DNA of 64,000 nucleotides, taken from contig DDUL01000036.1 of NCBI GenBank assembly GCA_002344785.1, positions 120,063 to 184,062 of the forward strand. The letters are read 5' to 3'. This document shows positions 9,206-31,231 of the stretch, piece after piece. This DNA comes from Bdellovibrionaceae bacterium UBA2339 (GTDB lineage: Bacteria; Bdellovibrionota; Bdellovibrionia; Bdellovibrionales; JAMPXM01). Below the pieces are notes generated by a model. The model was not told where the DNA came from. It made no database searches and saw nothing but the letters and a program-made list of their open reading frames with translations. Positions within the stretch are counted from its first letter, which is position 1. Every line of letters starts with the position of its first letter. The translations under genes and the position numbers were made by a program.

Positions 9206-9207
9206 AC

Positions 9208-14822: not shown

Positions 14823-16315
14823 ATCACGCACTTGGAATCAGCAGCTACTTGATTGTCGCGCCGATGCTGGCGCTGTTGGCGGCGAGTCTGGTCCCGGTGA
14901 TGCTCAAGGTTTTCTCGGGAAACCGTGAACCGCATCCGTTTGTAACCACGACTTACGGATTCATCGCGGTGGCCACGGCCTTGGGTCTTGCGATCACTTT
15001 TCTCGGCGGCAGCAAGTTTGGATTTCACAACGCGTTGGTGTCGGATGGTTTGTCGCTTTGGGCTTCGGTGATCGTCTTGGTTTCTGGCGGCTTTTCGATC
15101 TTCATGATGCACGATCATGTCGAAACGCAGACGAAGCTTTTCTCAGAAAAAGTCTTCCTCTTGCTCGGCAGCCTCATTGGCATGCTGATCGTGGTTCTAT
15201 CCAACGACCTGATTGTGACTTTCCTTGGCATTGAGACCATGTCGTTGTGTCTCTATGTTTTGATTGCCATGAGTCGCGAGACAATTCTCTCGAAAGAAGC
15301 GGCCTTCAAGTATTTCATTCTGGGAAGCTTTGCCTCGGCCATCTTCCTCTACGGGATCGCGCTCATCTACGGCACAGCCGGAACCACTCAGTTCCCAGGT
15401 CTGATGGAGCAGGTAGGCCCGCTGCTGGAAAGCCGCAATCACTTGTTTTTGATCGGCATCGTCTTTGTGGTGCTGGGCTTTGCATTCAAAGTTTCGGTGT
15501 TTCCATTTCATTTCTGGACACCCGATGTTTATCAGGGCGCACCGACGCCGGTGACGGCGTTCATGGCGACGGCGGTGAAGGCAGCGACCTTTGTGGCCAT
15601 TCTCCGATTGTTTCAATCGACGGGATATCAGCATTCGTTGCCGCTCAAGGAAGTCATCTCGTGGCTTGCGGCCTTGACGATGCTCGTGGGCAATGCCGCC
15701 GCGATCATGCAGGCGAACTTTAAACGAATGCTGGCCTACTCGTCAGTGGCGCACTCGGGCTATCTGATGGTCGGTGTTGTGGCGGCCGGATTTGGCGACT
15801 CGCAAGGCGTGGCAAGCGCGGCTGGAATTGTCGTGCTCTTTTATCTGTTGGCCTATTCCATCATGACTTTGGGAAGTTTCGCCTTTGTCGCGTTGCTGGA
15901 AAAGAGCGTCGGCCAGGCTTTGCAGGTTGATGATGTGCGGGGGTTGGCTCGATCGCATCCTGTTTTGGCCGGATGTATGGCCATCGTCTTGTTTTCGCTG
16001 GCCGGTGTGCCGCCGTTGCTTGGATTCTTCGGTAAGTTCGGCTTGTTCAGCTTGGCCATCGAACAGAACTTCTACTGGCTCGCGATTTGGGGCGTTTTGA
16101 ATTCTGTAATCTCGGTCTACTACTATCTGCGACCCATTGTACTCATGTACATGCAGGGCGAAGACTCGTCGGCAAATGCGCCTCTCATTGAGATGAATAA
16201 GCACATCATGACGCGGTTTACGCTTTTTGGATCCGCAGTCCTGATCATTATCATGGGAATGTTTTCTTCCCCGATCCTCGCGGCACTGAAGGCCGCCATT
16301 CTGGGTCGCTCCTAA
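14819..16315 (+). CDS. nuoN: NADH-quinone oxidoreductase subunit N
   Basis: 498 aa. FPFHFWTPDVYQGAPTPVTAF motif. ATGA overlap with nuoM. Confidence 0.92.
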   Translation: MNHALGISSYLIVAPMLALLAASLVPVMLKVFSGNREPHPFVTTTYGFIAVATALGLAITFLGGSKFGFHNALVSDGLSLWASVIVLVSGGFSIFMMHDHVETQTKLFSEKVFLLLGSLIGMLIVVLSNDLIVTFLGIETMSLCLYVLIAMSRETILSKEAAFKYFILGSFASAIFLYGIALIYGTAGTTQFPGLMEQVGPLLESRNHLFLIGIVFVVLGFAFKVSVFPFHFWTPDVYQGAPTPVTAFMATAVKAATFVAILRLFQSTGYQHSLPLKEVISWLAALTMLVGNAAAIMQANFKRMLAYSSVAHSGYLMVGVVAAGFGDSQGVASAAGIVVLFYLLAYSIMTLGSFAFVALLEKSVGQALQVDDVRGLARSHPVLAGCMAIVLFSLAGVPPLLGFFGKFGLFSLAIEQNFYWLAIWGVLNSVISVYYYLRPIVLMYMQGEDSSANAPLIEMNKHIMTRFTLFGSAVLIIIMGMFSSPILAALKAAILGRS

Positions 16316-16544
16316 GCGTTCTTATAGAGTATTCAGAAAGTCGAGCTGGGCTGGCGCTGTGAAGTCATGGGTGGACTTCGCGGCGCAAGTTCGGAGTCCA
16401 GCGTCGAGACGCGCCCTCTGAATGGGCTCAGCGAACTCGACCTGCTGTCTCAACTTGCTTCGAAGTCTCATTCTCGATGGACATTCGGCCCGAGCTTCAG
16501 AAAACTAGAGAGCTGAAGTCACTAACCTGTGTTGAGGGGGACCC

Positions 16545-17585
16545 ATGCGTCGTACTCAAGGACTCCAGCTGTTGCATCGACGATTGAGCTTTGGCCTGAT
16601 TGTGATTTGCGCGTCTTCGATGCTTGGCATTGCTTGCACCAAGAAGAATGCACCACAAACCTCCGTCGTCGCGCCGACTGGTGCCGCACCCAATGCGCCC
16701 GCACAAGCTGCTGCGCAAGCTGAAGGACCGCGTGCGCCGATGTCGCCTCGAACAGCTCCACCGAATATTTTCATTCCGCCCGGTGGATTCTTGATGGGCG
16801 TGGCCCCAGGCAACACCTATATCGTTGCGGGCTCGCCTGTCGGTAAGACATTTCAAGATGCGATGGAAGACGAGATCAAGCCGGGGATGACTTTGGCTCA
16901 GCTTGCGGAGCGCGCCAACGCCGTCGTCGCCGAAGTTGGTTTGGATTTTGGCGTCGGCATTTATTCGACGATGGATTCGACCTACGCGAACATGCAGGAA
17001 ACGAATCCGGCGAAGAAGAATTCCAATATAGTTGTGGGTCCTGTGCAGATTAATCCATGCAATCGGAAAGTTGTGCCGATGCGTGTGGTGAACATCAAAG
17101 AAACGACGGCAACGGTTGTCACTTCGATGGGTAAGTTTGAAGTGAAGTTCAACGACGATGTTCGTCCGCGCATGATGTATTTGTATCAGGGCGACAAGCA
17201 GGTCGCACAGATGCCCATCAGCGACTTGGATCACCCGATCAACTTCATGAACGGCACGATTCCTTACTCGCCGATGCCGCTATCGGCGAAATACAAGGAG
17301 TGGTGGGATAAGAATATGCTCGCGAAGATTCGTGAGATGAACTCAGGATTGGCTGAGACGCCTCATCTGATGATGACCATCAACAGCGCGGGTCAGATTC
17401 GATTTGCATCGGACATCAATGCCTATCGACCTGGAAGTTTTGCATCCAACCCCAATCCGGCGAAGACTCAGGGTAAGCCGGGCTCCATCATGCACACGGT
17501 GCTTTCCGGAAACCTTACGGTGGACATCACCGACTACTGCGTGCAGCCGCCGCCGCAGGCTCCGCCGCCTCCACGAGGCAGCTGA
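16545..17585 (+). CDS. lipoprotein of unknown function
   Basis: Signal peptide plus lipobox (SSMLGIAC). 346 aa with a Pro-rich C-terminus (PPPQAPPPP). No recognisable catalytic motif. Confidence 0.65.
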   Translation: MRRTQGLQLLHRRLSFGLIVICASSMLGIACTKKNAPQTSVVAPTGAAPNAPAQAAAQAEGPRAPMSPRTAPPNIFIPPGGFLMGVAPGNTYIVAGSPVGKTFQDAMEDEIKPGMTLAQLAERANAVVAEVGLDFGVGIYSTMDSTYANMQETNPAKKNSNIVVGPVQINPCNRKVVPMRVVNIKETTATVVTSMGKFEVKFNDDVRPRMMYLYQGDKQVAQMPISDLDHPINFMNGTIPYSPMPLSAKYKEWWDKNMLAKIREMNSGLAETPHLMMTINSAGQIRFASDINAYRPGSFASNPNPAKTQGKPGSIMHTVLSGNLTVDITDYCVQPPPQAPPPPRGS

Positions 17586-17614
17586 GCTATTGGCACATAG
17601 GATGAGTTGATGTG

Positions 17615-17645
17615 AGGGGCCTCCCGAGAAGTCTTTGGGGCCCCT
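17615..17645. terminator. hairpin between convergent genes (possible bidirectional terminator)
   Basis: AGGGGCC (17615-17621) pairs with GGCCCCT (17639-17645). It lies between the lipoprotein stop and the radical-SAM stop. Confidence 0.45.
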
Positions 17646-18877
17646 TAATTATTTTGTGAGGCTTGGAAGCTCGGGTAAGCGCCGGCTTTCACAAGGGCGC
17701 TGAACATCTCTGGGAAAGTCGTGCAAAAACTCTCGCTTCGCCGTTGGTCCACGTCATCGAGCTTATAGACAATTTTTTCGAGGCCACTGGCCGGAGATTC
17801 GAAGCCGGGATCTGGCGGCAAATTTAGAAAGCCCTCGATGGCATTTTGACTAGCGTCGAATCCCACGTTGTAGCGGCTGAGATCTAAGGACTGAAGCGAA
17901 CGCTGCACGGTGGCCTTGATGGCCGGCGGCAAGTTGCGAATCGAAAACTCTCGAGGTTGGTGAATCAAGTTGTAGAGCTCGACTCTTGCCTCTGGGAAAT
18001 TCAACGTCCACTCGAGAAGATCGCGAATTGTCAGCACATTGAAGAGGCTGATCGATGCGAAGACTCCAACTTTGAAGTGGGGGTTCTCCCTGGCCACGTG
18101 GATGAACTTTTCGAAATTGCGCGCCACTTGCTCCCACTTGGCGCCCTTTCTTTGATACTCAAAGCGCGGACCGACGTCGTCGATCGACAGGAAAAGATCC
18201 ACTCGCTCAAACTTTCTAAGTGCGTCGACCCACTTCTCGTCAAAGACGCTGCCGTTTGAATTCAGCGTCACCGCGACGTGGTCGGCGTGGCCTTGATCAA
18301 TTAATTCATTGAGTAGGCTAAAGGCTTCTTTGTTGAGAAAGGGCTCGCCGCCATAAATCAGAACGCGGCGAAGGCTTGGCATCCATTGCCGAATTGCACG
18401 CATATTCTCTTCGCGAAGCTTGGGCGCTGCGCGCGCTTTGAGATCCAGAGTGACCTCGGCCGAGGGTGTGTGGAAATGATTCTCTTCAGCGGCCCATGAA
18501 GTGGACCACTCGGGATTGCAGATGCGGCACTTCAGGTTGCAGAGATTAGAAAGTTTGAGCACGAGATATTCAACAGTCGGTGAGTCGCGCCGATCTTTGA
18601 GCAGGGCATTGGACTGTTGTCGAAGGCTGTAGGTACCCGCGTCCTCTTCTGTCCAGCAGAGTTGGCACTCCTTGGGTCGCTCGCCTTTGATGAAGCGCTG
18701 ACGAAGACTTTGAAGATCTTCAGAGTTCCAAACTTCGTCGATCGAGTTTTCGAGCAAATTAAAAGGGCGTCCATCGGGCCGCTGAATCGGGCGTCCGATC
18801 TTGCAACACACAAGGCAAGTGCCATTGGGTGTGATTTCGAGACTGTTGAAAGGCATGACGCAGTAACTGGAGGACAT
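17645..18877 (-). CDS. radical SAM enzyme with N-terminal Cys-rich (twitch/SPASM-like) module, paralogue 3
   Basis: CX3CX2C motif in LSNLCNLKCRIC, preceded by YCVMPF...GTCLVCC...ECQLCW. Same architecture as the ORFs at 19545 and 20849. Confidence 0.85.
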   Translation of the reverse strand: MSSSYCVMPFNSLEITPNGTCLVCCKIGRPIQRPDGRPFNLLENSIDEVWNSEDLQSLRQRFIKGERPKECQLCWTEEDAGTYSLRQQSNALLKDRRDSPTVEYLVLKLSNLCNLKCRICNPEWSTSWAAEENHFHTPSAEVTLDLKARAAPKLREENMRAIRQWMPSLRRVLIYGGEPFLNKEAFSLLNELIDQGHADHVAVTLNSNGSVFDEKWVDALRKFERVDLFLSIDDVGPRFEYQRKGAKWEQVARNFEKFIHVARENPHFKVGVFASISLFNVLTIRDLLEWTLNFPEARVELYNLIHQPREFSIRNLPPAIKATVQRSLQSLDLSRYNVGFDASQNAIEGFLNLPPDPGFESPASGLEKIVYKLDDVDQRRSESFCTTFPEMFSALVKAGAYPSFQASQNN

Positions 18878-18951
18878 TCGCTCAATAGGCTATCACCGAT
18901 GTCGCAAGCCAGACAGCTGTTTTGAAAAGACTGGCGATCACGAATCCGCGA

Positions 18952-19479
18952 CTAGAGCGTGAGTCGAAGATGGCGGCGCATGGCAGAAGGTTTGACCATG
19001 CCTTGTGATCGGACGATTTCGCGGGAACCGCGGAAGCTGATCATCGTTGAGGCGCTCGGGGTTCCAAACTTTTGCACGACGTCGCGCTGTGAGGCGAGAT
19101 CCACTTGGTAAACTTCAATTCCGCGAAACTCAGCCTCAGCGAGGACGCGTGTCAAAGTCGGAACTTGAATACGACAGGTGGGCGAGTCCACTGAAGTGAA
19201 TACCAGTAAGACCATTCGCTGCGCCTTTTGCGCCGCCTCAAAGCTCGCGCTATCAAAGCGTCGAAGCGTGAGCGGGTTGGCTGAGGGCGGAGCGGACTGA
19301 TCCGGATCAATAGCCGCGCCACCTGGAACCTGCGCGGCAGGAAGCGTCGGGGCTCCGGGCTGGGGAGCTTGGGCCTGCGCTGACAAATCAAAGATGGAAA
19401 GAATCGCACAGAAAGCGGCGACGAGGATGCATCGAGCTGACCCGAGCGAATGTCTGTGAGCGCGAACGAATCCGAACAT
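18952..19479 (-). CDS. secreted thioredoxin-fold protein with SxxC (single-Cys) active-site position
   Basis: Signal peptide MFGFVRAHRHSLGSARCILVAAFCAILSIFDLSAQA. Trx-like core LLVFTSVDSPTCRIQVPTL...IEVYQVDL...VVQKFG...STMISFRG. An alternative GTG start at 19542 lies 2 nt after the upstream stop. Confidence 0.65.
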   Translation of the reverse strand: MFGFVRAHRHSLGSARCILVAAFCAILSIFDLSAQAQAPQPGAPTLPAAQVPGGAAIDPDQSAPPSANPLTLRRFDSASFEAAQKAQRMVLLVFTSVDSPTCRIQVPTLTRVLAEAEFRGIEVYQVDLASQRDVVQKFGTPSASTMISFRGSREIVRSQGMVKPSAMRRHLRLTL

Positions 19480-19544
19480 GATAACTCTTCGGTCGAATTG
19501 GCGAATTTTATGAGTCGGATGGCAGCGCATTCGACACCTCACTC

Positions 19545-20852
19545 TCAGGCTAAAGTCGGGTCAGGAGATGTCGTCAGTTCCCAATTTCGAGCTTCGGGGA
19601 AAACGCGGAAAAAATCGTCCATTTCAAAGTTCATTTGTCGCTTGAGGCTTGCAAGTAAGGCCGCGCGCTCCGCACGAGCGGGTGCGGTGGGCGCTTGCAG
19701 CATGAAGGCCCGCATTTCGTCGAGTCGAGTCCGCATATTCTGTGCTTCGTGCGAGGTGCCAAGGCGCGACTTTAGTCCGTCCCAATCGCGAGCCACGCGA
19801 GCCTTGTCTGCATCGGGAAGGTTCTGGATCGAGAAGTAGGTGTGGGTGCGCAATAAGTTGAAGGCGAAGTGATCGGGCTTTGCAGCCTCTTGCCGAAGCA
19901 GCTCATCGTGAAGGTCCACAAGGTGGAGCGCATTGAGGATTTGCACCGTCGGCGCGACGAAGAAATTGAACTGAGGATGAGACTTAGAGAACTGAACAGC
20001 CTGCTGCATGTTCTCGAGCACCTGAGGCCACTTCGTACCACGGCGAATCCAAGCGGCGCGCTCGCCGCTCGCATCGACGCTGGCATGCAAATTCACTGAG
20101 CGAAACTTTTCCCAAAGCTCAAAGGCCGGCGTGCGATTCCAGCTCAGCATGGACAGATTGGAGTTATAGCGCAACCGAATGTGAGTGTGTCCGCGGTCAA
20201 TCAATCGCCGCAACAGATCCCATTGAGCTTCGATGATCAGCGGTTCGCCGCCACAGAGATAGATTTCATCGAGATGCGGCGCTTGCTCGTCGACGAACTG
20301 CCAAAACTGCGGCCAATTGGCGATTGCGGATTGGACGATGGGTCCCTGCCATCGACCGGCCTTCGCTTCATTCTGTGCATAACTTGACGAGTTGTGTTCG
20401 TCGCACATCACGCATGCGAAATTGCAGAGGTTCGAGAATCGCAGATCAAGATAGAGCATCTTTCGCTGCGCTCGTTTTCCATCGCGAGTGGTGCCGACGA
20501 CCAGCTCTTGCTGGTCCGCATAGCGACGATTCATGTCCATGCGATAGCTGATGGCCCCGTATTGAGTCTCGGCGCTTTGGCAGCGAAAGCATGAGGCCGG
20601 CAGTCGTCCCGAAATCATTTCCGCGCGCAAGGCATTGGCTTGAGGCGTGTCGAGTAGATCCTGAAGTCCATGGTCCCGCGTGTGCCCGTAGACATACTCA
20701 AAGTTCGTGCAGCACGGTGAGGCGGCACCGGAGCTCGGTAAATAAATGTGAAGCCATGGCAAAATGCAAAAGCTTGAGCTCTGCCAAAGTGCTTTCACCT
20801 CGGCAGGTGTGAGTTGACTCGTCTGATCCTCATCGCGCGAAGCAAGGCTCAT
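19545..20852 (-). CDS. radical SAM enzyme with N-terminal Cys-rich (twitch/SPASM-like) module, paralogue 2
   Basis: FSNLCNFACVMC (CX3CX2C), preceded by FCILPWLH...SPCC...ASCFRC. ATGA overlap with the upstream paralogue. Confidence 0.85.
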   Translation of the reverse strand: MSLASRDEDQTSQLTPAEVKALWQSSSFCILPWLHIYLPSSGAASPCCTNFEYVYGHTRDHGLQDLLDTPQANALRAEMISGRLPASCFRCQSAETQYGAISYRMDMNRRYADQQELVVGTTRDGKRAQRKMLYLDLRFSNLCNFACVMCDEHNSSSYAQNEAKAGRWQGPIVQSAIANWPQFWQFVDEQAPHLDEIYLCGGEPLIIEAQWDLLRRLIDRGHTHIRLRYNSNLSMLSWNRTPAFELWEKFRSVNLHASVDASGERAAWIRRGTKWPQVLENMQQAVQFSKSHPQFNFFVAPTVQILNALHLVDLHDELLRQEAAKPDHFAFNLLRTHTYFSIQNLPDADKARVARDWDGLKSRLGTSHEAQNMRTRLDEMRAFMLQAPTAPARAERAALLASLKRQMNFEMDDFFRVFPEARNWELTTSPDPTLA

Positions 20853-22117
20853 CGACCATCTCTTTGCGCATTCGCATGTGGTGAGTTCGAAAGGCGAAGA
20901 CCCGCAAGCTTCAACACCTCGTTGGCTCCTTGCGCAGAAGTCTGATCCAGCCAGCTCCGGAGCCGCAAAATCTCCTCTTCGCGCGAAGCCTGCAGCATCA
21001 TGTACGCCTTCATTTCCGTAAGTCGGGACCGCAAATGAGCACCTTCGGGCGCTTGATTGGCGAGGCCCGCCAGCTGATCCCAGGCCGTGACAACACGCTG
21101 CTTATCGTCGTCGCTGAGATTCTGAATTGAAAAATGCGAGGGAAACATCAGCAGGTTCGGTGAAACCATGCTGTCACCGAGGGCATCCACCGATCGCAAA
21201 TGCCGATAAAGGTCGAGCAGATGAAGCGCATTGAGAATTTGTACGGTGGGTGTGATGACGAGTGAAACTCCGGCCACGTTTCGAGAAAGCTGATGAACAG
21301 CGCGAAGATTGTCTTCGATCTGTCTCCAGTCGCTGCCGCGTCGGATGATCGTCGCAAGTTCTCCATAGGCATCGATCGAAGCTTGCACGGAAACGCGTTC
21401 GAACTTAGCCCAAAGCTCAAGGACGGAGGTTGATGATGAACCCGCCGCGAGTCTTGTGAGGTTGGTGTTATAGCGGAGATGAACTTGAGTGCGGCCAGCA
21501 CGAATGAGCCGCTTTAAGAGATCCTCGTGTTCAGCGAGAAGAATGGGTTCGCCGCCACAAAAGTAAATCTCCTCAAACTCGCCGATGTGGTCGTCAAAAA
21601 ACTTCCAGAAATCTTCAGGTTTGCCAAAGGCCCGCCTCAAGGTCGGGCCGTCATAGCGACCCGCTGCGCGTTCCTTTTGTGCGAACAGAGAAGAGTTCAC
21701 CTCATCGCACATGATACAGGCGAGGTTGCAGAGATTTGAGAAGCGAACGTCGAGATACACGCTTCTGCGAACCTGTCGCCGTCCGTCGGAGTCGGTCTTT
21801 CGAATCAGATCAGCATGATGTTGAAATCGACGATTCATGTCTTGGCGATAAGACAGAGATCCAAACTCAGCTTCAGGCTGCGAGCATCGATAACAACTTG
21901 CGGGCAAGCGCCCGCGGAGCATTTCGACGCGAAACGCGTTGGCCGCCGGTGAGTCGAGTGCCTCATCCAGACCGCTTTGATGAGTGTGGCCGAAGACATA
22001 ATCTTGGTTGATGCAGCAGGGGATGACTCGGCCATCTGTCCAAACCGCAGCGTGGAGCCAAGGTAAGATGCAAAGATGCTTGGAGCTGAGCAGCTCCTGG
22101 GCTGCGTCGTCCTTCAT
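20849..22117 (-). CDS. radical SAM enzyme with N-terminal Cys-rich (twitch/SPASM-like) module, paralogue 1
   Basis: FSNLCNLACIMC, preceded by LCILPWLH...IPCC...ASCYRC. The internal ATG at 22117 forms an ATGA overlap with the carbamoyltransferase stop, so the ORF-track start at 22192 is probably too long. Confidence 0.85.
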   Translation of the reverse strand: MKDDAAQELLSSKHLCILPWLHAAVWTDGRVIPCCINQDYVFGHTHQSGLDEALDSPAANAFRVEMLRGRLPASCYRCSQPEAEFGSLSYRQDMNRRFQHHADLIRKTDSDGRRQVRRSVYLDVRFSNLCNLACIMCDEVNSSLFAQKERAAGRYDGPTLRRAFGKPEDFWKFFDDHIGEFEEIYFCGGEPILLAEHEDLLKRLIRAGRTQVHLRYNTNLTRLAAGSSSTSVLELWAKFERVSVQASIDAYGELATIIRRGSDWRQIEDNLRAVHQLSRNVAGVSLVITPTVQILNALHLLDLYRHLRSVDALGDSMVSPNLLMFPSHFSIQNLSDDDKQRVVTAWDQLAGLANQAPEGAHLRSRLTEMKAYMMLQASREEEILRLRSWLDQTSAQGANEVLKLAGLRLSNSPHANAQRDGR

Positions 22118-23814
22118 GCGCTGGGGGTCGGCGACTTCTCGACGATGAAATCGCCGATCGCCAACAAATCCATTTGTGTGTGTTTGAAGCAATCGATGGC
22201 GTGTTCCGGCTGGCAGACCACAGGTTCGCCCTTACGATTGAAGCTTGTGTTGATGATCACGGGGACACCGGAGAGCGAGTCGAACTCTTCGATCAAGCGA
22301 CGAAGTTTTGGATTGGAGGTCTTATCGCAGGTCTGGACGCGAGCTGTGCCATCAATGTGTGTGATGGCGGGGACGCGGCTTTGGGCCTCGGGTCGGACCT
22401 GAGGAGCCAACAACATATAGGGAGAAGCGACGTTGAGATTGAAATACTCGTTGGCTTTTTCCTCGAGCACGATGGGGGCAAAGGGCCGAAAGGCCTCGCG
22501 CTTCTTGATTCGCAGATTCAAAATATCTTTCATTCCGGCAAATGTCGGATTGCCGATGATGGAACGATTGCCCAGCGCACGCGGTCCAAACTCCATGCGC
22601 CCCTGAAACCAACCGATGGCTTTGTTGTCGAAGATGGCTTGTGCGACGTACTTGCAGAGCGCGGCCTCGTCCATCTCTCGATAGCTGAGCTTGGCGGCCT
22701 TGAGTGCGCGTTCGATTTCGCGCTTGGAAAACTCGGGACCCAAATAGGCGTGGCGCATGACTTGGCGTTCGCAATTGGGCTGTAGCTGATGTTGCACCCA
22801 AAGCGCCGAGCCGACGGAGCCGCCGGCATCGCCCGCGGCAGGTTGAACGAACACATCCTGAAAGTCGGTTTGATCCAGAATCTTGGCGTTGGCCACGCAG
22901 TTTAGGGTCACGCCACCGGCCAAACAAAGATTCTTAAGTCCCGTCGACTTTTGCAGCAGCCTCGCGTTGAGGATGAAACAGTTCTCGATGAACTCTTGGC
23001 AAGCAGCGGCCAGGTCGTAGTGCCTTTGCTCCCAGGGCTCGCCGGTTGCGCGCGGCCGACCGAAGAGCTTCTCCCACTTTGCGCTCCACATTCTCTGGCC
23101 GTAGCGGAACGCGAAGTAACTTTGATCCAGAACAAAACTTCCATCGTCATTGAGGCGCGCGACCTGCGTGAGTTTGTCGCGATAGGATTTGGGATCGCCA
23201 TATCCGGCAAGCCCCATAGTCTTTCCTTCACCGCCATGCGCATCGAAGCCTAAGAACGTGGTGACGGCCGTGTAGAGCAAACCCAAGGAGTGCGGATAAT
23301 GAATCTCTCGGTCGATTGAAATGCGCCGACCTTCGCCTTTGCCCACGGAGAGAGTGGCCCATTCGCCGACGCCATCGGCGGTGAGAATGGCAGCACTCTC
23401 AAACGGCGAAGGATAAAAGGCCGATGCTGCGTGTGAGAGATGATGCTTGAGGAAGTAGATGGGTCCTTTGAATGTGAGCTCATCTTCGATGAGCGTCGGC
23501 AATGCCAATCGATGACTTAGCCACTTCGGCATTGAGCGATGAAAGCCGGTCCATGAGAAGGGCCAAGCTGAGACGTGATCTGCGACAACGCGCGCGAACT
23601 TGAGAAACGGCTTTTCAAAGTAGGCGACGGCATCCACGTCTTGGAGTGTGACGCCAGCCTGCTGCATGCAGAAGTTGATCGATTGAATGGGAAATTCGGA
23701 AGTGTTCTTCACGCGACTAAAGCGCTCTTCTTGCGCAGCCGCGATGATCTGACCATCGCGAACCACGCAGGCCGAAGAGTCGTGATAGAAACAGGAAATC
23801 CCCAAGATCAACAC
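22114..23814 (-). CDS. NodU/CmcH-family carbamoyltransferase
   Basis: 566 aa. The N-terminus ILGISCFYHDSSACVVRDGQIIAAAQEERFSRVK is typical of NodU/CmcH/TobZ-type carbamoyltransferases. GTG start. Confidence 0.9.
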   Translation of the reverse strand: MLILGISCFYHDSSACVVRDGQIIAAAQEERFSRVKNTSEFPIQSINFCMQQAGVTLQDVDAVAYFEKPFLKFARVVADHVSAWPFSWTGFHRSMPKWLSHRLALPTLIEDELTFKGPIYFLKHHLSHAASAFYPSPFESAAILTADGVGEWATLSVGKGEGRRISIDREIHYPHSLGLLYTAVTTFLGFDAHGGEGKTMGLAGYGDPKSYRDKLTQVARLNDDGSFVLDQSYFAFRYGQRMWSAKWEKLFGRPRATGEPWEQRHYDLAAACQEFIENCFILNARLLQKSTGLKNLCLAGGVTLNCVANAKILDQTDFQDVFVQPAAGDAGGSVGSALWVQHQLQPNCERQVMRHAYLGPEFSKREIERALKAAKLSYREMDEAALCKYVAQAIFDNKAIGWFQGRMEFGPRALGNRSIIGNPTFAGMKDILNLRIKKREAFRPFAPIVLEEKANEYFNLNVASPYMLLAPQVRPEAQSRVPAITHIDGTARVQTCDKTSNPKLRRLIEEFDSLSGVPVIINTSFNRKGEPVVCQPEHAIDCFKHTQMDLLAIGDFIVEKSPTPSA

Positions 23815-23817
23815 GAA

Positions 23818-23976
23818 TCAAACTCCGGCGTAGATAAAGGTGATGATGATGCCGGGTCCGACCTTGAAGAACAAAATCGCAAACAAGATGAGCGAAATGA
23901 GAATGGGCGCCATGAAGTAGAGCTTGTGTTCGCGAATCAGGTGTCCCACTTCGCGGAGCATGCTTTTGATTTTCAT
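23818..23976 (-). CDS. 52-aa single-TM protein (SxtK/DUF5989-like), not in the supplied ORF track
   Basis: My own translation: MKIKSMLREVGHLIREHKLYFMAPILISLILFAILFFKVGPGIIITFIYAGV. SD-like AAGGGGTGAG upstream. The stop is 3 nt before the carbamoyltransferase GTG. Confidence 0.65.
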   Translation of the reverse strand: MKIKSMLREVGHLIREHKLYFMAPILISLILFAILFFKVGPGIIITFIYAGV

Positions 23977-24029
23977 CACTCACCCCTTATGGCCATCGGC
24001 CCACTGATCTCAAATACCCCACTCTAAAC

Positions 24030-24329
24030 CTAGGACTGAAATTTTGCCTGATCGACGGAGGCATCATAGCCTTTGGCCGCGACCCAATTTGAATCTGGAG
24101 AAATCGTCGGATGACGGAGAGCTCGTCGCGCGAAAAGTCGGACCCAAATTGAAGTTGGACCCAACACGAAGAAGTACAAAAGAAAGAGCGCTAATCCGCC
24201 GATGATTTTCTGCAGGACGACTTCAATCATGAAGCGCTCAAACCACTTGAGAGCGCGCCAAGCCGGAGCCGGCAACACAGCCTGAAGGAAGGCTTGAAAT
24301 TTCTCAAAGCCCTTGATGAGCCAACTCAA
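24030..24329 (-). CDS. small membrane protein, possibly SxtJ-like
   Basis: 99 aa with a hydrophobic segment IIGGLALFLLYFFVLGPTSIWVRLFARRAL. ATGA overlap with the TusA-like gene. The family assignment rests only on position next to the carbamoyltransferase. Confidence 0.55.
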   Translation of the reverse strand: MSWLIKGFEKFQAFLQAVLPAPAWRALKWFERFMIEVVLQKIIGGLALFLLYFFVLGPTSIWVRLFARRALRHPTISPDSNWVAAKGYDASVDQAKFQS

Positions 24330-24631
24330 CTTGGATCCTCCGTAGTGGAAGTCTGTCCATCGACCTCGATGAGGAGATGCCAGGTGGGCGTTGGCAGAGA
24401 GCCGTCGGCTTGCTGCCTTCGCAGGACGACCTTGTGACCTTCACCCTCGACGGAGGCGCTGACGTTATCGACGGGTTCACCGTCATCGACACGCACGTGC
24501 AAACGCTCGCCGCTCATCATCGTGCTGAGCTTGACGACGGCTTTCGCGGCATTCTGCGGGCAAGGTATGCCACGCAGATCGAGCGATTCGTCGGCGGCCA
24601 TGTCATCGACAAATTGGCCATGATTTACCAT
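24326..24631 (-). CDS. TusA/SirA-like sulfur carrier protein
   Basis: LDLRGIPCPQN matches the DxRGxxCPxP-type motif of the TusA family. About 100 aa. Confidence 0.75.
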   Translation of the reverse strand: MVNHGQFVDDMAADESLDLRGIPCPQNAAKAVVKLSTMMSGERLHVRVDDGEPVDNVSASVEGEGHKVVLRRQQADGSLPTPTWHLLIEVDGQTSTTEDPS

Positions 24632-24816
24632 GACCGAGCCTCGGGCCGTTGTGCGCGGCCGACTCTCGTCATAGCGTATCGTTGTGGGAATGAAATGAAG
24701 CGAGACATCTTCAATATGATGGCACTGTCGCGCAGAATTTCCAAACGCTAGTGCGCTTGTGGCGGACGAAGTTGCCCCGCCCCGCTTCGTCGAGTCCCGG
24801 TTTGCAGAACGTCAAT

Positions 24817-26028
24817 TTATTGCGAATTGAATCGAGCGTGTTCGTCATGCAGACGATTCACAACCTGGACGATGGCTTCGCCCAGACGCGCCACCTCACT
24901 CGGTGTGTGCCACTTTGAGAAGGACAGGCGAAGACCTTCTTGGGCGTCTGCTCGGCGACCCAGCGCGCGCAGCACATACGAAGTTGTGAGTTTCCCGGAC
25001 GAGCATGCCGAACCGGTTGCCGTCGCAAATCCAAGCTGATCCAGTTGGCGCATGATGGGCTTGGCTTCAAGACCCAAGAACGTGAAGTTCACGATATTCG
25101 GAAGCACAGGTCCTGAGCGAGGTCCGTTGAGTCGCGCCATGGGCAGCTCACCCAACACATGATCAATCAACTTCTTGCGCAGCTCTTGCAGATACTCGGA
25201 CACCGAAGCGGCTCGCGGGTTTTCGCTCGGCCACGAACTCCAACACTTCACGGCTTCGGCAAAACCCACCGCCAATTCGACCGCCGGAGTTCCCGATCTT
25301 AAGCCGCGCTCTTGGCCGCCCCCGCGAAACCAAGGCTCCAGCTCCAGCCCGCTGCGCACAAACAGGCCGCCGATGCCTCGAGGCCCATGGCACTTATGGG
25401 CATTGATACTCAGCAAATCGACGTGGATCTCTTGGAGATTGATCGGAGTTTTGAGGTAGCTTTGACAGGCGTCGGTGTGAAACAGAACTTTGTGTCGTCG
25501 CGCGATCTCGCCGATGGCACGAAGGTCTTGAACAACGCCGATCTCGTTGTTGGCATGCATGATCGAGATCAATTTGGTTTCAGGGCGGATGAGAGCTTCG
25601 AGCTCATTGAGACGTACAACACCGTCAGCGTCGACGGGGGCCTCGTCTAAATCAATCCAACCGCGACGAGCCATCCAAATCGCCGGTTGGCGTATGCTGG
25701 AGTGTTCGATCGACGAGACGATGTAGTGGGGGCGAGGCGCAGAAGCCGACGTAAGGGTTTCTTGATTGAGAAGTGCATGCAGCACCCAATTGTTCGCCTC
25801 AGTGCCGCCCGAGCAAAAGATCATCTCGAAACTTGAACGCAGGCCCAATGACTCGGCGATGACCTCGCGCGCGTTTTCGAGATGTGCGGCCGCACGAACT
25901 CCGGCTTGGTGAATGGAAGAGTTGTTGGCGAGTTCGAGGCGAAAGCACTCGGCCACGCGTTCGGCGACACGAGGGTCGACAACAGAGCTTGCGGCCTGAT
26001 CGAAGTTGATCGCGCTGTAATTCGGCAT
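24817..26028 (-). CDS. NifS/IscS-type cysteine desulfurase (class V aminotransferase)
   Basis: SGGTEANN, HTDACQ, INAHKCHGPRGIGGLFVR (PLP Lys), RSGTPAVEL and TGSACSSG (persulfide Cys). Confidence 0.9.
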   Translation of the reverse strand: MPNYSAINFDQAASSVVDPRVAERVAECFRLELANNSSIHQAGVRAAAHLENAREVIAESLGLRSSFEMIFCSGGTEANNWVLHALLNQETLTSASAPRPHYIVSSIEHSSIRQPAIWMARRGWIDLDEAPVDADGVVRLNELEALIRPETKLISIMHANNEIGVVQDLRAIGEIARRHKVLFHTDACQSYLKTPINLQEIHVDLLSINAHKCHGPRGIGGLFVRSGLELEPWFRGGGQERGLRSGTPAVELAVGFAEAVKCWSSWPSENPRAASVSEYLQELRKKLIDHVLGELPMARLNGPRSGPVLPNIVNFTFLGLEAKPIMRQLDQLGFATATGSACSSGKLTTSYVLRALGRRADAQEGLRLSFSKWHTPSEVARLGEAIVQVVNRLHDEHARFNSQ

Positions 26029-26031
26029 CCG

Positions 26032-27195
26032 TTACTTGTACTCGTAATTCAGCTGAGATGCGATCTCATTCAGCGTGGACTTCTTCACATTGAAATCCAA
26101 ATCACGCAGTGCCTCATCGCGACTGAGGACACCTTGGCGGATCAGCTTACTCATCTCCACGTGATAATGCGTGTAGCCGAAGTGCTTCATCGAATTGGCC
26201 ACGCTGACAAAGTTCAACGCGCAATTCGTACTTCGACCCGGATAGCTGAGCTTGGGATATTCCCACCCGAGTTCGCGGCGAATCGTTTCCACGTAAGTTT
26301 CTTGATCAAAGGGTAAGAACCAATGGGGAGAGAGAACCAGGGACTTGTGTCGCTTCTGGGCGCGCTTGAGCACTTCCTCCATGGAGGTCGGAAAATCCTT
26401 ATAGCGCGGATTGGGTCGAATGTAGGTTTCGATGAATTGCTTTGTCGCCTCACCCATCTCTTTGAACTCGGGCTGGGAGGTGTTGCAGCCGCACTTGCTC
26501 ATGACGTTCTGAGAAGTGCTCTGACCCTTCGTCCATCCGGCGATGATGATGGGAATTTCGTAGCGAGCCGCAGTGTCGTAGGCCAGATCCATGTACCAGA
26601 GCGAACAGGGGTGACAGACCACGGCCTTCGAGTCGGTCTTCAACAGGGTGCTAAACAATTCCTTCATGTACCCTGACTTGAAGAACATGAAGTCGACTCC
26701 AAGTTTGTCGACAGCGCGCTTAACGTTGGCGATGGCTTCAGGTGTTTCAAAGCCATTGTCGAACATGAAAGCCAGCGGGCGGACTTTGTAGCGTGTGACC
26801 ATGTAGTAGAGCGCCGAAGTTGAGTCCTTGCCGCCGCTGCACATGGCGAGGACATCATACTTACCTTGGCCCTTATGCTTGGCGAGAATCTTCAACAGAT
26901 CGGACTCCAGCAATTTTGACGAGGCCTCGACCTGCTTTTCTTGTTCGTACTCTCGACACAAATTGCACACGCCCTCGTGATCAAAAAATATGTGAGGCTT
27001 AGCTTCGGGCATCACACAAGATTTGCAGATGGGTCGGTGAGAGCCTTCAACGCCGGCGACTTTGTAGTCCGGTGAGTCGGGAGCCGGAGTGGTCGGGTGG
27101 AGAGTGGCCAACGGAGTTGCGAACTCGCTGGCGCTCGTGACCGCAGGCGACGCCGATCGGCTAGGGCCAAAATTTTGTCCAGTGCCCTGACTCAC
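26032..27195 (-). CDS. PP-loop ATP pyrophosphatase of the N-acetyl-sugar amidotransferase (WbpG/PseA-like) type
   Basis: CKSCVMPEAKPHIFFDHEGVCNLC zinc-ribbon, followed by VLAMCSGGKDSTSALYY (SGGxDS PP-loop). GTG start with AAGGAGG 6 nt upstream. Confidence 0.8.
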   Translation of the reverse strand: MSQGTGQNFGPSRSASPAVTSASEFATPLATLHPTTPAPDSPDYKVAGVEGSHRPICKSCVMPEAKPHIFFDHEGVCNLCREYEQEKQVEASSKLLESDLLKILAKHKGQGKYDVLAMCSGGKDSTSALYYMVTRYKVRPLAFMFDNGFETPEAIANVKRAVDKLGVDFMFFKSGYMKELFSTLLKTDSKAVVCHPCSLWYMDLAYDTAARYEIPIIIAGWTKGQSTSQNVMSKCGCNTSQPEFKEMGEATKQFIETYIRPNPRYKDFPTSMEEVLKRAQKRHKSLVLSPHWFLPFDQETYVETIRRELGWEYPKLSYPGRSTNCALNFVSVANSMKHFGYTHYHVEMSKLIRQGVLSRDEALRDLDFNVKKSTLNEIASQLNYEYK

Positions 27196-27397
27196 GTTTG
27201 GCCTCCTTGCGAACTCTCAATCCGAGGTCCGAAAAAACGGTTGTAAAGATCCTGTCTCGAAGTGAGACGGTCCGCTGCACATGTGCGAACTCACTCTAGA
27301 ATAGGTTAGGAAGTTCGTGATCACAAAGTCCAGACCGACTGCAAAATGATGTTTTAGTCGGACGCAAACTGAGCGAGCGATCGCGCCTTACTTTGAG

Positions 27398-29146
27398 TCA
27401 CTTTTTGTCGGGCTGAGCACGCGTTTCTCCGAGCGCGGCTCGGTGCTGAAGTAGAACTTCAAGGGCCGACTGCGCGACGCCCCCATAGCCGAGTGCCGTC
27501 AAATGCTGATCTTCATCACCCAGCTCTGAAGAATAAACATCGCGAAGCGAGTGGGCCTGTAAAAGTTGAGCGAGTTGTGGACGAGGATCCACGCTCTCGA
27601 CCTTCAGCCGGTCAACCACGGCGCGAAGCTGAGTGTTCACGGGATTTTCGCGAAGATGCATTTGTCGATCAGAGCGGGCCGGCTTCGAAACCTGGTCATT
27701 TGAAGCCAAAAATTTATAGGGGTGATAGAGCTGGACAATGGGGAGCGCTCCGGCTTCGCGAACTTGTCGGACAATTTCCTCGATGCCGATTTCAATCGAG
27801 TTCTCCGCATCCACTGAGGTGGCCAACTTGTAGTACTGAGGCAGAGAATCCCGCCAATTCTCGACACGATTCATAATCAGACGGAGTTCAGCTTGCGCAG
27901 CAGAGTCGGGTGGCGTTTGGCGCGCTTGGGCTTGTCGGGCGCTGATGTCGCTCAGTGTGATGTGATAATCCGAGTAGGGATTCAACTCGATGAGCGAGGC
28001 CAACGACTCGGCCGTCGGGTGCAGCGAATGAAACACACTGAGAAAGGGCGCCTCAGACCGCAACACTTCGAGCTGTTGCTGGGATTGCGAAGGGCTCAAC
28101 CCAGAAGGGGTGTGGCGCTCAATGACCCAAGCCCGTAGGTGTGAGTCTTCAAAGCCGAGTTGATGTGGGCGGGGCAGCTGGGATGGCAGCTGGGACCGCA
28201 GTTGGGCCCACAGATCGTCGAGTGTTTGCGAAATCTCTGTCGTGGATTCGCCGCGCTTGGCCTGCAGCTGTGCGGACTTTAATCCCAATGCCAAAGCGAT
28301 ATGAGGTTGAGGCTTGAAACTCACATCTTCCCAGCGCCCGCGCGCGAGTCGCTGTAGAGCCTCGGCACGATCTCGAGAAGCTTGCGCGCTGTCGGCACTG
28401 AGCAGGTGCGCGAGAGTCGCCGCGAACAAACTGCGGTGTTGGTCATTCGCCAGCGGACTTCGCAAACCGCTCTCTAAAGCCTGAGCCACGGACTTCAGCA
28501 GATGTGGCCCGAACACCATCGGATCTGTCCACCCGGGCTCCAGCATGCCCGCCCACGCCATGCTTCGTTCAAATCCATGCAGGTCGGTATCGATGAGATA
28601 GTGAGGCGTTCGCATGTGGAAATTCGCCAAGAGACCGCGTCCCAATCCGTGTCGCCAAAGATCTATGGCGCGGCCGACGCGCAGACCCTCGTACCAAGTT
28701 TCATAGCCGCGCTGACGAGGATGATGTAAGCCGAGCTTGTTGTAGAAGTTCGATTCGCCAGCCCAGATCAACACCACTTGCGGCTGATACAATCGCATCC
28801 ACCTCGGCAAGTGGCGAAGAATCTGCGCTGTGTTCCAGCCGCCACGTCCAAGATTCAGGACTTGAACCTCCAAGCCTTGTTCGCTGAGTAAAACTTGAAG
28901 CTGGTCAGGAAAACTTTGGCCCGCCGGGGCGCCCGTCCCAAATGTGAAGCTGTGTCCAATGCATAGAATGCGCGGCCGGGTGAAATCAGGCGTCGGCTCA
29001 TCGGCGAAGCGGCCCTGGCGGCCGAACCATCTAAGTCCCAGTTCCGCCACGATGAAAATCAGTAAGAATGCGGCGATGACCAACGAGGCGCGCACGGCAA
29101 GTCGAAGCGAACTTGGCCGATACTGCCGAGCCCGATCAGAGGTCAT
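27398..29146 (-). CDS. membrane-anchored SGNH/GDSL-like hydrolase with large helical insertion
   Basis: N-terminal TM. Block I ILCIGHSFTFG, block II LGRGGWNT, block III IWAGESNF. After about 300 aa of helical sequence come IVQLYHPY and DQHLTALGY (block V-like). Confidence 0.6.
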   Translation of the reverse strand: MTSDRARQYRPSSLRLAVRASLVIAAFLLIFIVAELGLRWFGRQGRFADEPTPDFTRPRILCIGHSFTFGTGAPAGQSFPDQLQVLLSEQGLEVQVLNLGRGGWNTAQILRHLPRWMRLYQPQVVLIWAGESNFYNKLGLHHPRQRGYETWYEGLRVGRAIDLWRHGLGRGLLANFHMRTPHYLIDTDLHGFERSMAWAGMLEPGWTDPMVFGPHLLKSVAQALESGLRSPLANDQHRSLFAATLAHLLSADSAQASRDRAEALQRLARGRWEDVSFKPQPHIALALGLKSAQLQAKRGESTTEISQTLDDLWAQLRSQLPSQLPRPHQLGFEDSHLRAWVIERHTPSGLSPSQSQQQLEVLRSEAPFLSVFHSLHPTAESLASLIELNPYSDYHITLSDISARQAQARQTPPDSAAQAELRLIMNRVENWRDSLPQYYKLATSVDAENSIEIGIEEIVRQVREAGALPIVQLYHPYKFLASNDQVSKPARSDRQMHLRENPVNTQLRAVVDRLKVESVDPRPQLAQLLQAHSLRDVYSSELGDEDQHLTALGYGGVAQSALEVLLQHRAALGETRAQPDKK

Positions 29147-30341: not shown

Positions 30342-30481
30342 CGATTCAGTTTAAACCTGTGTCCAGCAGGCGTCGACCCCCCGCATCTGAAGCTATCAAC
30401 GCCCCGCAACACTCGCAGGCAAGACCAAGGATCGAGCAGAAAAAATTTGAGCGTCAGCCGACTTCCACCTAGGCTCGAATC

Positions 30482-31135
30482 ATGGTGTCGACCTCGACTC
30501 GAAACAAAGCTGCGACCAAGTCGCAGTCTCAAAAAAACTGGCTGCTTCTCACTGATTACGCGAGCAAGTATCGGGTCAGTGTTTCAACTCTGCGCCGTCG
30601 GATTAAGTCGGGTGCGCAGGAGCACCGTTTTGAAAACGGCAAATACTTTTTGCCCGAGCCCACAGTGCGAGACTTAGACGCCGGCGTGCACTTGGCCACC
30701 GAGATCTCCGCCACCACGGTCTCACCGGCGTCTTCACAAGCAGCGACTTCGCTCGGCGCGAGTGCGACTCAAGCTGAACCACCGGCGGGTGCCGCGGCCT
30801 CGCCCCGAGCCATGCCGGCACAGCATTTCACTTCTTCAGCTGAATTGGGTCTGCAAGAAAGCAAGCTGAGCGCCGATCTGAATCACTCGACGGTGCAAGT
30901 TGCGGCAGCTCAAATGGCGGCGCATGAAACCACCGAGGGGTCTTTGCTTCGTACGACCACTCGGCTCGTGGATGAGCTCAAGCGCGCTTACACACAAGTT
31001 TTGCAAGAAAAAGAAGAGCAGATTTTGCTTCTCAAAGAGGAGATCGCTGATCTCAAGACGCTCGTTCGCGTCCTGGAGTTTGATCGCGAGCGCCAGCTTC
31101 ACCAACAGCAGCAGCAGCAGACTCAGCTTCGCTGA
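30482..31135 (+). CDS. HTH DNA-binding protein with C-terminal coiled coil and Gln-rich (HQQQQQQTQ) tail
   Basis: N-terminal LLLTDYASKYRVSVSTLRRRIKSG (excisionase/MerR-like HTH). Ala/Ser-rich linker. Heptad-like LVDELKRAYTQVLQEKEEQILLLKEEIADLKTLV. Ends HQQQQQQTQLR. Confidence 0.6.
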   Translation: MVSTSTRNKAATKSQSQKNWLLLTDYASKYRVSVSTLRRRIKSGAQEHRFENGKYFLPEPTVRDLDAGVHLATEISATTVSPASSQAATSLGASATQAEPPAGAAASPRAMPAQHFTSSAELGLQESKLSADLNHSTVQVAAAQMAAHETTEGSLLRTTTRLVDELKRAYTQVLQEKEEQILLLKEEIADLKTLVRVLEFDRERQLHQQQQQQTQLR

Positions 31136-31174
31136 GCCTAGGCCTGACGGAAGCGTCCGTTCACTTTGCCGTTC

Positions 31175-31200: not shown

Positions 31201-31231
31201 CTCGATCGATCTTTAGAATTTTGATTTCCGA

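Follow-up and report, generated by a model that had tools for sequence, protein, structure and literature searches.

What is the function of an operon that encodes carbamoyl transfer, sulfur delivery and radical S-adenosylmethionine (rSAM) chemistry, and no enzyme that would build the molecule to be modified? This question is raised by ten co-directional minus-strand genes at positions 17645–27195 of a 64,000-nt stretch of the genome of Bdellovibrionaceae bacterium UBA2339 (contig DDUL01000036.1, positions 120,063 to 184,062; the whole stretch is referred to here as the window). In order of transcription, the genes encode a PP-loop ATP pyrophosphatase, a NifS/IscS-type cysteine desulfurase, a TusA-family sulfur carrier, a 99-aa membrane protein (“sm99”), the small membrane protein DUF5989, a carbamoyltransferase, two rSAM paralogues, a thioredoxin-fold protein and a third rSAM paralogue. 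All ten open reading frames (ORFs) proposed in the first-pass annotation of the window are present in the ORF list and its translations. Profile searches with Pfam and NCBIfam models agree with the functional calls and assign every product except the 99-aa protein. That annotation treated the ten genes as one unit. We find that the conserved unit is smaller. It consists of the PP-loop enzyme, the 99-aa protein, DUF5989, the carbamoyltransferase and an SGNH/TPR hydrolase encoded just upstream of the ten genes, usually together with TusA and NifS. Its probable role is to attach carbamoyl and sulfur-containing groups to a membrane-associated molecule of the cell envelope.

Conservation of the gene set across phyla

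A scan of one genome per species, covering ~185,000 species, found 184 relatives of the PP-loop gene, which we use as the marker gene of the cassette. Neighborhoods were taken from the best 80 of these 184; the ORFs of each locus were called and then searched with profiles for which the proteins of the window served as seeds. These 80 loci represent Bdellovibrionota, Omnitrophota, Elusimicrobia, Bacteroidota, Planctomycetota, Desulfobacterota, Myxococcota, Patescibacteria, Gemmatimonadota and other phyla. Their typical gene order is NifS, TusA, PP-loop, 99-aa protein, DUF5989, carbamoyltransferase and one or more SGNH genes, mostly on one strand. Partners were counted if they lay within 6 kb of the PP-loop gene, in the 36 loci that extend 6 kb or more on either side of it. 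By this measure, the carbamoyltransferase gene is found in 30 of the 36 well-flanked loci, the genes for the 99-aa protein and DUF5989 in 28 each, the SGNH/TPR gene in 27, TusA in 24 (about two thirds) and NifS in 21 (more than half). Of all genes, that for the carbamoyltransferase shows the tightest linkage to the PP-loop gene. PP-loop enzymes have a median identity of 60% to their counterpart in the window; the corresponding medians are 53% for the carbamoyltransferase, 49% for DUF5989, 46% for TusA, 38% for NifS, and 32% for both the 99-aa protein and the SGNH protein.

These counts change the extent of the unit at both ends. Upstream, a boundary at 27195 had left out the SGNH/TPR gene at 27398–29146, which is on the same strand and is the cassette member counted above. 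Downstream, the expectation that the genes would co-occur was borne out for those encoding the carbamoyltransferase, the PP-loop enzyme, TusA and NifS, but the rSAM genes, which belong to an N-terminal-twitch family, follow the cassette in only four of 80 loci (L041, with three copies, L072, L029 and L061), with weaker relatives elsewhere, and the thioredoxin-like gene in none. Hence, we regard the rSAM and thioredoxin-like genes as add-ons, and the ten-gene operon as a lineage-specific elaboration of a smaller cassette. Comparable rSAM genes have been added to the cassette again in a few loci of Bacteroidota and Elusimicrobia.

The cassette itself also varies. The gene adjoining the PP-loop gene encodes TusA, NifS or, in one locus, a fusion of CoA-disulfide-reductase, rhodanese, TusA and DsrE domains. 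Many Omnitrophota loci have no adjoining TusA or NifS gene, and the PP-loop gene is still found with the carbamoyltransferase module. Some loci (L089 and L091) hold only the PP-loop gene, a NifS gene and a TusA-like gene. In L091, an 818-aa fusion protein (pyridine-nucleotide disulfide reductase, rhodanese, TusA and DsrE-like; 7517–9973) is encoded before the PP-loop gene, which is followed by nadA and a cysteine desulfurase gene, with no carbamoyltransferase gene nearby.

The proposal that the system has no scaffold-building enzyme is true of the operon in the window. None of its ten products matched a glycosyltransferase, nonribosomal peptide synthetase (NRPS), polyketide synthase (PKS), YcaO or transporter family in Pfam and NCBIfam searches, and inspection of the intergenic gaps revealed no plausible precursor-peptide ORF. 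In other lineages, however, the cassette adjoins genes for GT2/GT4 glycosyltransferases, GalE, AsnB, sulfatase/phosphoethanolamine-transferase-like proteins, PMT_2 and an SGNH-TPR-sulfatase fusion. The missing scaffold enzyme is thus a matter of local gene order in the window and not a property of the system.

Among close relatives, the gene order lon–patatin–PP-loop...rSAM–nuo is retained at 96%, 90% and 80% identity. Since this synteny holds, and the core of the cassette holds across phyla, the arrangement is not due to chance. The PP-loop gene is 90% identical to one in a metagenome-assembled genome (MAG) of the Bdellovibrionaceae, and the 99-aa protein is 100% identical to one from a Pseudobdellovibrionaceae MAG. 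The best 80 of the 184 PP-loop genome matches are all MAGs, with no cultured isolate among them, which may explain why the cassette is unstudied.

Proteins of the conserved cassette

The PP-loop ATP pyrophosphatase (26032–27195) resembles N-acetyl-sugar amidotransferases (NASATs) and has an N-terminal Zn ribbon. Enzymes of the NASAT family turn a sugar N-acetyl group into an acetamidino group. NASATs are defined by an SGGxDS PP-loop and a Zn-binding CxxCxn[GN]xCxxC motif (PMC10607449). In the window protein, SGGKDS occupies residues 120–125, without variation among the members aligned (16 of 16 and 12 of 12), and a Zn tetracysteine, C57-x2-C60 ... G75-V-C77-x2-C80, spans residues 57–80. The window protein therefore has the CxxC...[GN]xCxxC and SGGxDS motifs of the NASATs (WbpG, WbuX, PseA/LfnA and LpNASAT; 8wex) and aligns to the TIGR03573/WbuX model over nearly its full length. 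However, its score against this model is 164.0 bits, under the curated cutoff of 203.2 bits, and it has five further invariant cysteines: C194-x2-C197, C235, C237 and C325. The best fold match to its structural model (pLDDT 79) is the Legionella NASAT 8wex (E = 2.8e-13), whereas the sequence match between the family profile and 8wex is significant solely over the N-terminal ~90 profile positions. The C-terminal 244 residues have no significant relative among PDB sequences. More than 810 homologues were found; the best 120 are ~60–77% identical and come from very distant lineages, and the family was not found in characterized O-antigen or nonulosonic-acid loci. The PP-loop enzymes of the cassette are a distinct subfamily.

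The next fold matches after 8wex are the [4Fe-4S] tRNA thiolases TtuA/NcsA, then LarE and YcfA; QueC and the nitrile synthetase ArtA are also among the matches. The PP-loop sulfurtransferases (TtuA/NcsA/TtcA, LarE and YcfA) share with the window protein an adenylation domain, a Zn ribbon and a CxxC ~70 residues past the PP-loop (the extra CxxC of the window protein is ~74 residues beyond the motif), and they too have a dedicated sulfur donor encoded alongside, as TusA and NifS are here. In TtuA/NcsA-type thiolases, the CxxC and one distal Cys ligate a catalytic [4Fe-4S] cluster near the PP-loop. The differences are substantial: identity is 13–17% with TM scores of 0.3–0.35, no RNA-binding features were recognized, and the context of the cassette is one of membrane and envelope rather than translation.

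The likely co-substrate supply also sets the subfamily apart. The proposal for NASAT-type PP-loop enzymes is that ATP is used to activate an amide carbonyl, whose oxygen a nucleophile can then displace (PMC10607449), and the canonical NASAT WbpG is thought to obtain ammonia from HisH2/HisF2 (PMC11445079). The partners of the window enzyme are TusA, NifS and the carbamoyltransferase, and no HisH/HisF-type donor is found among the recurrent neighbor clusters annotated in the 80 loci.

Two side observations concern the PP-loop family. Loci from Myxococcota and those labeled “proteobacterial” carry a second, tandem PP-loop paralogue (L052 5264–6304; L059 3326–4393; L076 11026–12057; L080 9496–10527). 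In this paralogue Cys119 is replaced by Leu, FDxGF by FNxGF and CHPC by C[GP]VC, while the other invariant cysteines are kept; the altered motifs suggest a heterodimer with one specialized subunit. In Falkowbacteria (L002/L020 9166–9315), the profile of the PP-loop family matches a 46-aa ORF that immediately precedes the cassette and may be a detached N-terminal (Zn-ribbon) fragment.

The carbamoyltransferase (22114–23814) is of the NodU/CmcH/TobZ type. Like those proteins, it is a two-domain enzyme, scoring 254 bits against Carbam_trans_N and 237 bits against Carbam_trans_C (Pfam cutoffs, 24 and 27 bits). Against the NodU equivalog NF041651, it scores 190.6 bits, and the cutoff is 1000. All 53 cassette members compared share residues H124, H125, H128 and D147. 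By reference to TobZ, we take these to be the expected HHxxH...D metal site of the Kae1-like domain. Carbamoyltransferases of the NodU/TobZ family form carbamoyl-AMP, from which a hydroxyl or an amine receives the carbamoyl group.

Two small membrane proteins are encoded between TusA and the carbamoyltransferase. The 99-aa protein (24030–24329) has a conserved C-terminal W...GY...QS motif and a hydrophobic segment at residues 33–67. It has no Pfam or NCBIfam match, and none of 17 members of its family matches a Pfam family. Its gene is present in 61 of 84 loci, mostly adjoining that of DUF5989. DUF5989 itself (23818–23979; 53 aa; PF19451, 31.4 bits with a cutoff of 27) has a hydrophobic segment at residues 18–53, and its gene is present in 63 of 84 loci. 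Each of the two proteins has a single long hydrophobic stretch with a central Gly-Pro. In this analysis, membrane segments were called from a hydropathy scan and topology from the positive-inside rule. DUF5989 is also encoded beside a second, separate carbamoyltransferase in three loci (L039, L065 and L084), which suggests that it is a general partner of such enzymes.

The desulfurase and the sulfur carrier are the usual companions of the core. The NifS/IscS-type desulfurase (24817–26028) matches Aminotran_5 with 230 bits and the NCBIfam models for NifS, DndA and IscS with 256–311 bits, in each case under the equivalog cutoff. Its gene adjoins the TusA and PP-loop genes in 43 of 84 loci. TusA (24326–24631; Pfam TusA, 50 bits with a cutoff of 28.6) has a cysteine, Cys24, that is 100% conserved within G-[VI]-P-C-P-x-N across 53 family members, and a DDGEP motif. 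The canonical TusA motif is CPxP; in the cassette it is CPxN. Cysteine desulfurases are combined with PP-loop ATPases in Dnd and Ssp systems as well, and in that comparison the window NifS has bit scores of 350 for SspA and 335 for DndA. DNA phosphorothioation was rejected, nonetheless: the PP-loop enzyme is neither DndC nor SspD, there is no DndB/D/E or SspB/C, and the one Dnd/Ssp component that PADLOC matched was the desulfurase, with a generic hit.

The SGNH/GDSL hydrolase (27398–29146; 582 aa) is membrane-anchored, with one N-terminal hydrophobic segment at residues 12–42 and a Lipase_GDSL_2 match at residues 62–144. Homologues are found in 50 of 84 loci, often as two to six tandem paralogues. 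The family conserves G64/S66, G100, G130 and H548, and the block I Ser and block V His are kept in ~84% of members. The two halves of the fold are separated by a long helical, TPR-like insert of ~350 residues, and homologues match both TPR and GDSL C-terminal-block models. In Falkowbacteria, the gene is fused to TPR and sulfatase-like domains. Envelope SGNH acyl-transferases and esterases of the PatB/Ape, OatA C-domain and AlgX/AlgJ types have a catalytic Ser/His and an N-terminal anchor, and are encoded beside cytoplasmic enzymes that make the group to be transferred. The cassette protein resembles them in its conserved Ser/His, its anchor and its position beside genes for cytoplasmic enzymes that would make the group, a comparison made by description. 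It differs in the split fold, in the two to six paralogues or sulfatase-like fusion, and in that the cassette has no MBOAT or AT3 membrane acyl-translocase. In the relatives at 96%, 90% and 80% identity, the SGNH gene is absent between the patatin and PP-loop genes (L005 9605–10001; L085 2313–2709). Since it is present in the window, it was either lost recently in these relatives or gained in the window.

Lineage-specific additions

All three rSAM paralogues, 1 (20849–22117), 2 (19545–20852) and the divergent 3 (17645–18877), belong to the NF033640 family (“twitch domain-containing radical SAM”), with 307, 319 and 314 bits, respectively, and a cutoff of 170 bits. Paralogues 1 and 2 are 47% identical to each other, and paralogue 3 is 23–26% identical to either. 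Each has the CxxxCxxC motif of the SAM cluster and an N-terminal Cys-rich twitch domain, and the Pfam SPASM matches lie at the N-terminus. Across 43 sequences, cysteines C24, C25, C71, C74, C113, C117 and C120 are invariant, and C6 is nearly so. The model of paralogue 3 (pLDDT 93.7) matches CteB, SkfB, viperin, SuiB, anSME, BlsE and MoaA, in every case only over the generic rSAM core (TM 0.3–0.4), so no function can be transferred from the fold search. With more than 4,300 cluster representatives, NF033640 is a very large family, and a literature search on the N-terminal twitch/SPASM rSAM family found nothing relevant.

The thioredoxin-fold protein (18952–19542) is signal-anchored, with a hydrophobic segment at residues 32–57, and has SPTC in place of CxxC. 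Its matches to Thioredoxin (E = 6e-4) and TIGR01068 (E = 6e-6) are both under the family cutoffs, and its start codon is uncertain. The 96% relative has a 175-aa version at this position. In the 80% relative, two rSAM genes and a gene for a 260-aa protein without a family match are found where the window has rSAM paralogue 2 and the thioredoxin-like gene.

Arrays of N-terminal-twitch rSAM genes, with up to eight paralogues, were seen in L086 (8483–18978), L087 (8627–12911 and its flanks) and L088. Such arrays adjoin genes for GDSL/SGNH proteins, sulfotransferases, AMP-binding/ACP/ECH proteins or a carbamoyltransferase. They point to a wider, unstudied rSAM-SGNH gene neighborhood.

Operon structure and genomic setting

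The ten genes were described as translationally coupled. This holds for six of the nine junctions, which are 4-nt overlaps or gaps of 2–3 nt. The overlaps of the carbamoyltransferase gene with rSAM gene 1 (22114–22117, where the ATG start of the rSAM gene overlaps the carbamoyltransferase stop) and of rSAM genes 1 and 2 (20849–20852) read ATGA, as reported. The third reported ATGA, between the TusA and 99-aa genes (24326–24329), is a 4-nt overlap but reads TTGA, with a TTG start. The 3-nt gaps between the PP-loop and NifS genes (26029–26031) and between the DUF5989 and carbamoyltransferase genes (23815–23817) are exactly as given, and rSAM gene 2 and the thioredoxin-like gene are 2 nt apart. 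Three wider gaps had gone unmentioned: 185 nt between NifS and TusA, 74 nt between the thioredoxin-like gene and rSAM gene 3, and 50 nt between the 99-aa and DUF5989 genes.

The widest of these gaps may carry an internal promoter ahead of tusA. A ~40-nt block at 24716–24756 (minus strand), GCGCACTAGCGTTTGGAAATTC..CG.GACAGTG.CATCAT, is kept with few mismatches in the relatives L005 and L085, in contrast to the divergent intergenic sequence on either side of it, and its TTGGAA and CATCAT elements have a promoter-like spacing of 17 nt. Just upstream of the block, at ~24763–24789, the window has an extra insert that can form a hairpin (GACGAAG...CTTCGTC). A scan for σ70 promoters and intrinsic terminators was uninformative: it found no promoter, and terminator-like sites were fewer than in shuffled sequence. 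A search of Rfam with 16300–31300 at E ≤ 1 gave no match, and hence no riboswitch or structured RNA was seen.

Upstream, the end of a gene for a patatin-like phospholipase (29136–30341, minus strand; Pfam Patatin, 67 bits) overlaps the SGNH gene by 11 nt, and it is possible that the patatin gene is the first of the transcription unit. It is the upstream neighbor in close relatives, yet it is outside the cross-phylum cassette, with one occurrence in 84 loci. Convergent to the end of the operon, at 16545–17585 on the plus strand, is a gene for a 346-aa predicted lipoprotein (lipobox LGIAC) with no family match; lipoproteins of 342 and 344 aa are encoded at the same place in relatives. The flanks consist of housekeeping genes (nuoH-N, lon, mfd, dnaJ/grpE and dksA), and the GC content across the operon, 0.535–0.566, matches the remainder of the window. 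A phage or mobile origin was rejected on these grounds and because a scan for viral contigs gave only a 29-residue fragment match. Anti-phage defense was likewise rejected: PADLOC gave no system-level match, only weak viperin-like matches for the rSAM proteins and a generic phospholipase match for the patatin. Elsewhere in the window, a 697-aa HemN-like radical SAM ORF (39489–41582, minus strand) overlaps a 901-aa M16 peptidase ORF (40782–43487, plus strand) by ~800 nt, and probably at least one of the two start codons has been set too far upstream.

Discussion

What do the cassette and its additions in the window do? We tentatively favor the view that a cross-phylum envelope-tailoring cassette, in which carbamoylation is combined with PP-loop/sulfur chemistry, has been elaborated into the ten genes specifically in the Pseudobdellovibrionaceae. 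Decoration of a cell-surface glycan or lipid had been suggested from the ten genes in the first-pass annotation, and it is still the best guess, given the envelope-type context. Three observations argue for the envelope: the membrane segments of both small proteins and the anchors of the SGNH and thioredoxin-like proteins; the glycan- and envelope-type accessory genes that adjoin the cassette in other lineages; and the amino-sugar substrates of its nearest characterized relatives, NASAT and NodU. A single substrate for the carbamoyltransferase and the PP-loop enzyme is suggested by the tight linkage of their genes, and the desulfurase and TusA as the other partners point to sulfur.

The substrate class, the exchange of oxygen for sulfur, the topology and the order of steps that we infer are as follows. 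The carbamoyltransferase, tethered by both small membrane proteins on the cytoplasmic face of the membrane, would form carbamoyl-AMP and carbamoylate a membrane-associated envelope precursor; the most plausible target is an amino sugar within a lipid-linked glycan or a glycolipid. Next, the PP-loop enzyme would adenylate an amide or carbamoyl carbonyl oxygen of the same substrate, as has been proposed for NASATs. Sulfur from cysteine, passed by NifS to the invariant TusA Cys, would displace the activated oxygen to give a thioamide or thiocarbamoyl group. In lineages without TusA and NifS, nitrogen may be used instead, giving an amidine or guanidine. The SGNH/TPR proteins may act as esterases or transferases outside the membrane, after export, and the rSAM paralogues may contribute further modifications specific to the lineage.

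Several points weigh against this interpretation. No member of the cassette is characterized, no product is known, and no glycan-assembly gene is found near the operon within the window. Six of the 36 well-flanked loci have no carbamoyltransferase gene, and some hold only PP-loop and NifS/TusA genes; hence, the PP-loop/sulfur module may target another substrate. In addition, among loci flanked by 3 kb or more on both sides, 18 have no adjoining TusA gene, most of them from Omnitrophota, so insertion of sulfur may not be universal. PP-loop conservation of ~60% across phyla also fits a universal cytoplasmic substrate, such as a nucleotide or RNA. The extra PP-loop cysteines may serve an Fe-S cluster, Zn or a persulfide. 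Finally, the topology comes solely from the hydropathy scan and the positive-inside rule.

A more specific and more speculative version of the envelope proposal is that a sister family of NASAT has exchanged its ammonia donor for a persulfide relay from NifS to TusA and, acting alongside a dedicated carbamoyltransferase complex, puts thioamide or thiocarbamoyl groups on amino sugars or lipids of the envelope in many uncultured phyla, with the rSAM enzymes processing the product further in the lineage of the window. We consider this unlikely.

The strongest competing explanation, although an unlikely one, is that the cassette tailors a diffusible small molecule whose scaffold genes are elsewhere in the genome. 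The model here is the saxitoxin cluster, in which the carbamoyltransferase gene sxtI is beside the short, uncharacterized ORFs sxtJ and sxtK, and a GDSL enzyme, SxtL, is also encoded (PMC2885083). The proteins of the cassette could have roles like those of sxtI-J-K-L: here too the carbamoyltransferase is accompanied by two very small proteins and a GDSL-type enzyme. The operon in the window has no glycan gene, and the rSAM arrays in other genomes occur with AMP-binding/ACP/ECH genes and sulfotransferases. However, the sxt cluster has no PP-loop/TusA/NifS module, and we found no homology between the 99-aa protein and SxtJ: the profile of the 99-aa family retrieved 28 unnamed proteins and none named SxtJ, although such searches are of limited power when proteins are short. 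Scaffold genes, whether NRPS, PKS, terpene or other, do not recur beside the cassette in the 80 loci, nor does an exporter, and the accessory genes that do recur are of the envelope type. The cassette is also present in the small genomes of Patescibacteria.

It is also conceivable, though improbable, that the loci combine two independent modules: a thiolase made up of the PP-loop enzyme, TusA and NifS that modifies a tRNA or rRNA nucleoside or a cofactor, and an envelope module made up of the carbamoyltransferase, the small membrane proteins and SGNH. The loci with only PP-loop, NifS and TusA-like genes and the six without a carbamoyltransferase gene would be explained, the conservation of the PP-loop enzyme is typical of enzymes with universal substrates, and the tRNA thiolases TtuA and NcsA are among its structural neighbors. 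Nonetheless, the PP-loop gene is at most 6 kb from the carbamoyltransferase gene in 30 of the 36 loci, and often adjacent to it, far above what would be expected of unrelated modules. In Omnitrophota, the PP-loop gene keeps its place near the carbamoyltransferase module even when TusA and NifS are missing. Over its full length, the enzyme is homologous to sugar amidotransferases and not to tRNA enzymes, and the rarity of the family (184 of ~185,000 species) is unlike that of housekeeping RNA modification.

We regard as quite improbable the idea that the rSAM enzymes modify a protein, perhaps the SGNH/TPR paralogues, or an unannotated peptide, with sulfur and carbamoyl groups added to side chains. 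The nearest folds to rSAM paralogue 3 do include CteB, SkfB and SuiB, which mature ribosomally synthesized and post-translationally modified peptides (RiPPs), as well as anSME; several peptide-maturase models match weakly; and the SGNH/TPR genes form paralogue arrays. These fold matches cover the generic rSAM core, however, and the nucleotide-acting viperin, MoaA and BlsE score alike. No precursor ORF was seen in the gaps of the operon, and no RiPP recognition element, peptidase or exporter was found. Most cassettes have no rSAM genes, and the conserved catalytic Ser and His of the SGNH proteins fit enzymes rather than substrates.

Very improbable is a HypF/HypE-like route to thiocyanate or cyanide, proposed by analogy only, in which the TusA Cys or its persulfide would be carbamoylated, the PP-loop enzyme would dehydrate the thiocarbamate and the thiocyanate would go to a metal center or other acceptor: the TusA Cys is invariant, the HypF model TIGR00143 weakly matches the carbamoyltransferase (E = 0.0049, below cutoff) and the fold matches QueC and ArtA make nitriles from amides, but the cassette has no recurrent partner among hydrogenases or other metalloenzymes, the presence of NifS favors persulfide chemistry, many loci lack TusA, and the membrane proteins and SGNH enzymes would be left without a role.

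What is new here? The superfamily of each protein was already known, as was the general logic of an envelope-tailoring cassette. Searches of the accessible literature on the gene combination and on DUF5989 found nothing relevant, in agreement with the first-pass statement that no characterized pathway was known to have this combination. The coupling of a NASAT-like subfamily to a sulfur relay and a carbamoyltransferase appears to be new, as do the two small membrane partners, the split SGNH/TPR family and the repeated recruitment of N-terminal-twitch rSAM enzymes.

A thiolating sister family of NASAT would represent the first pathway for glycoconjugates modified with a thiocarbonyl, and would extend amide activation by PP-loop enzymes from nitrogen to sulfur transfer on glycoconjugates. 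The cassette, if it works as proposed, would also provide the first functional context for DUF5989, the 99-aa family and the N-terminal-twitch rSAM family. Even if the cassette carries out ordinary glycan tailoring, its conserved gene set is a clean, testable target for assigning function. If the proposal is correct, Bdellovibrionota, Omnitrophota, Elusimicrobia, Patescibacteria, Bacteroidota and other phyla would have in common an envelope modification that has not been recognized before.

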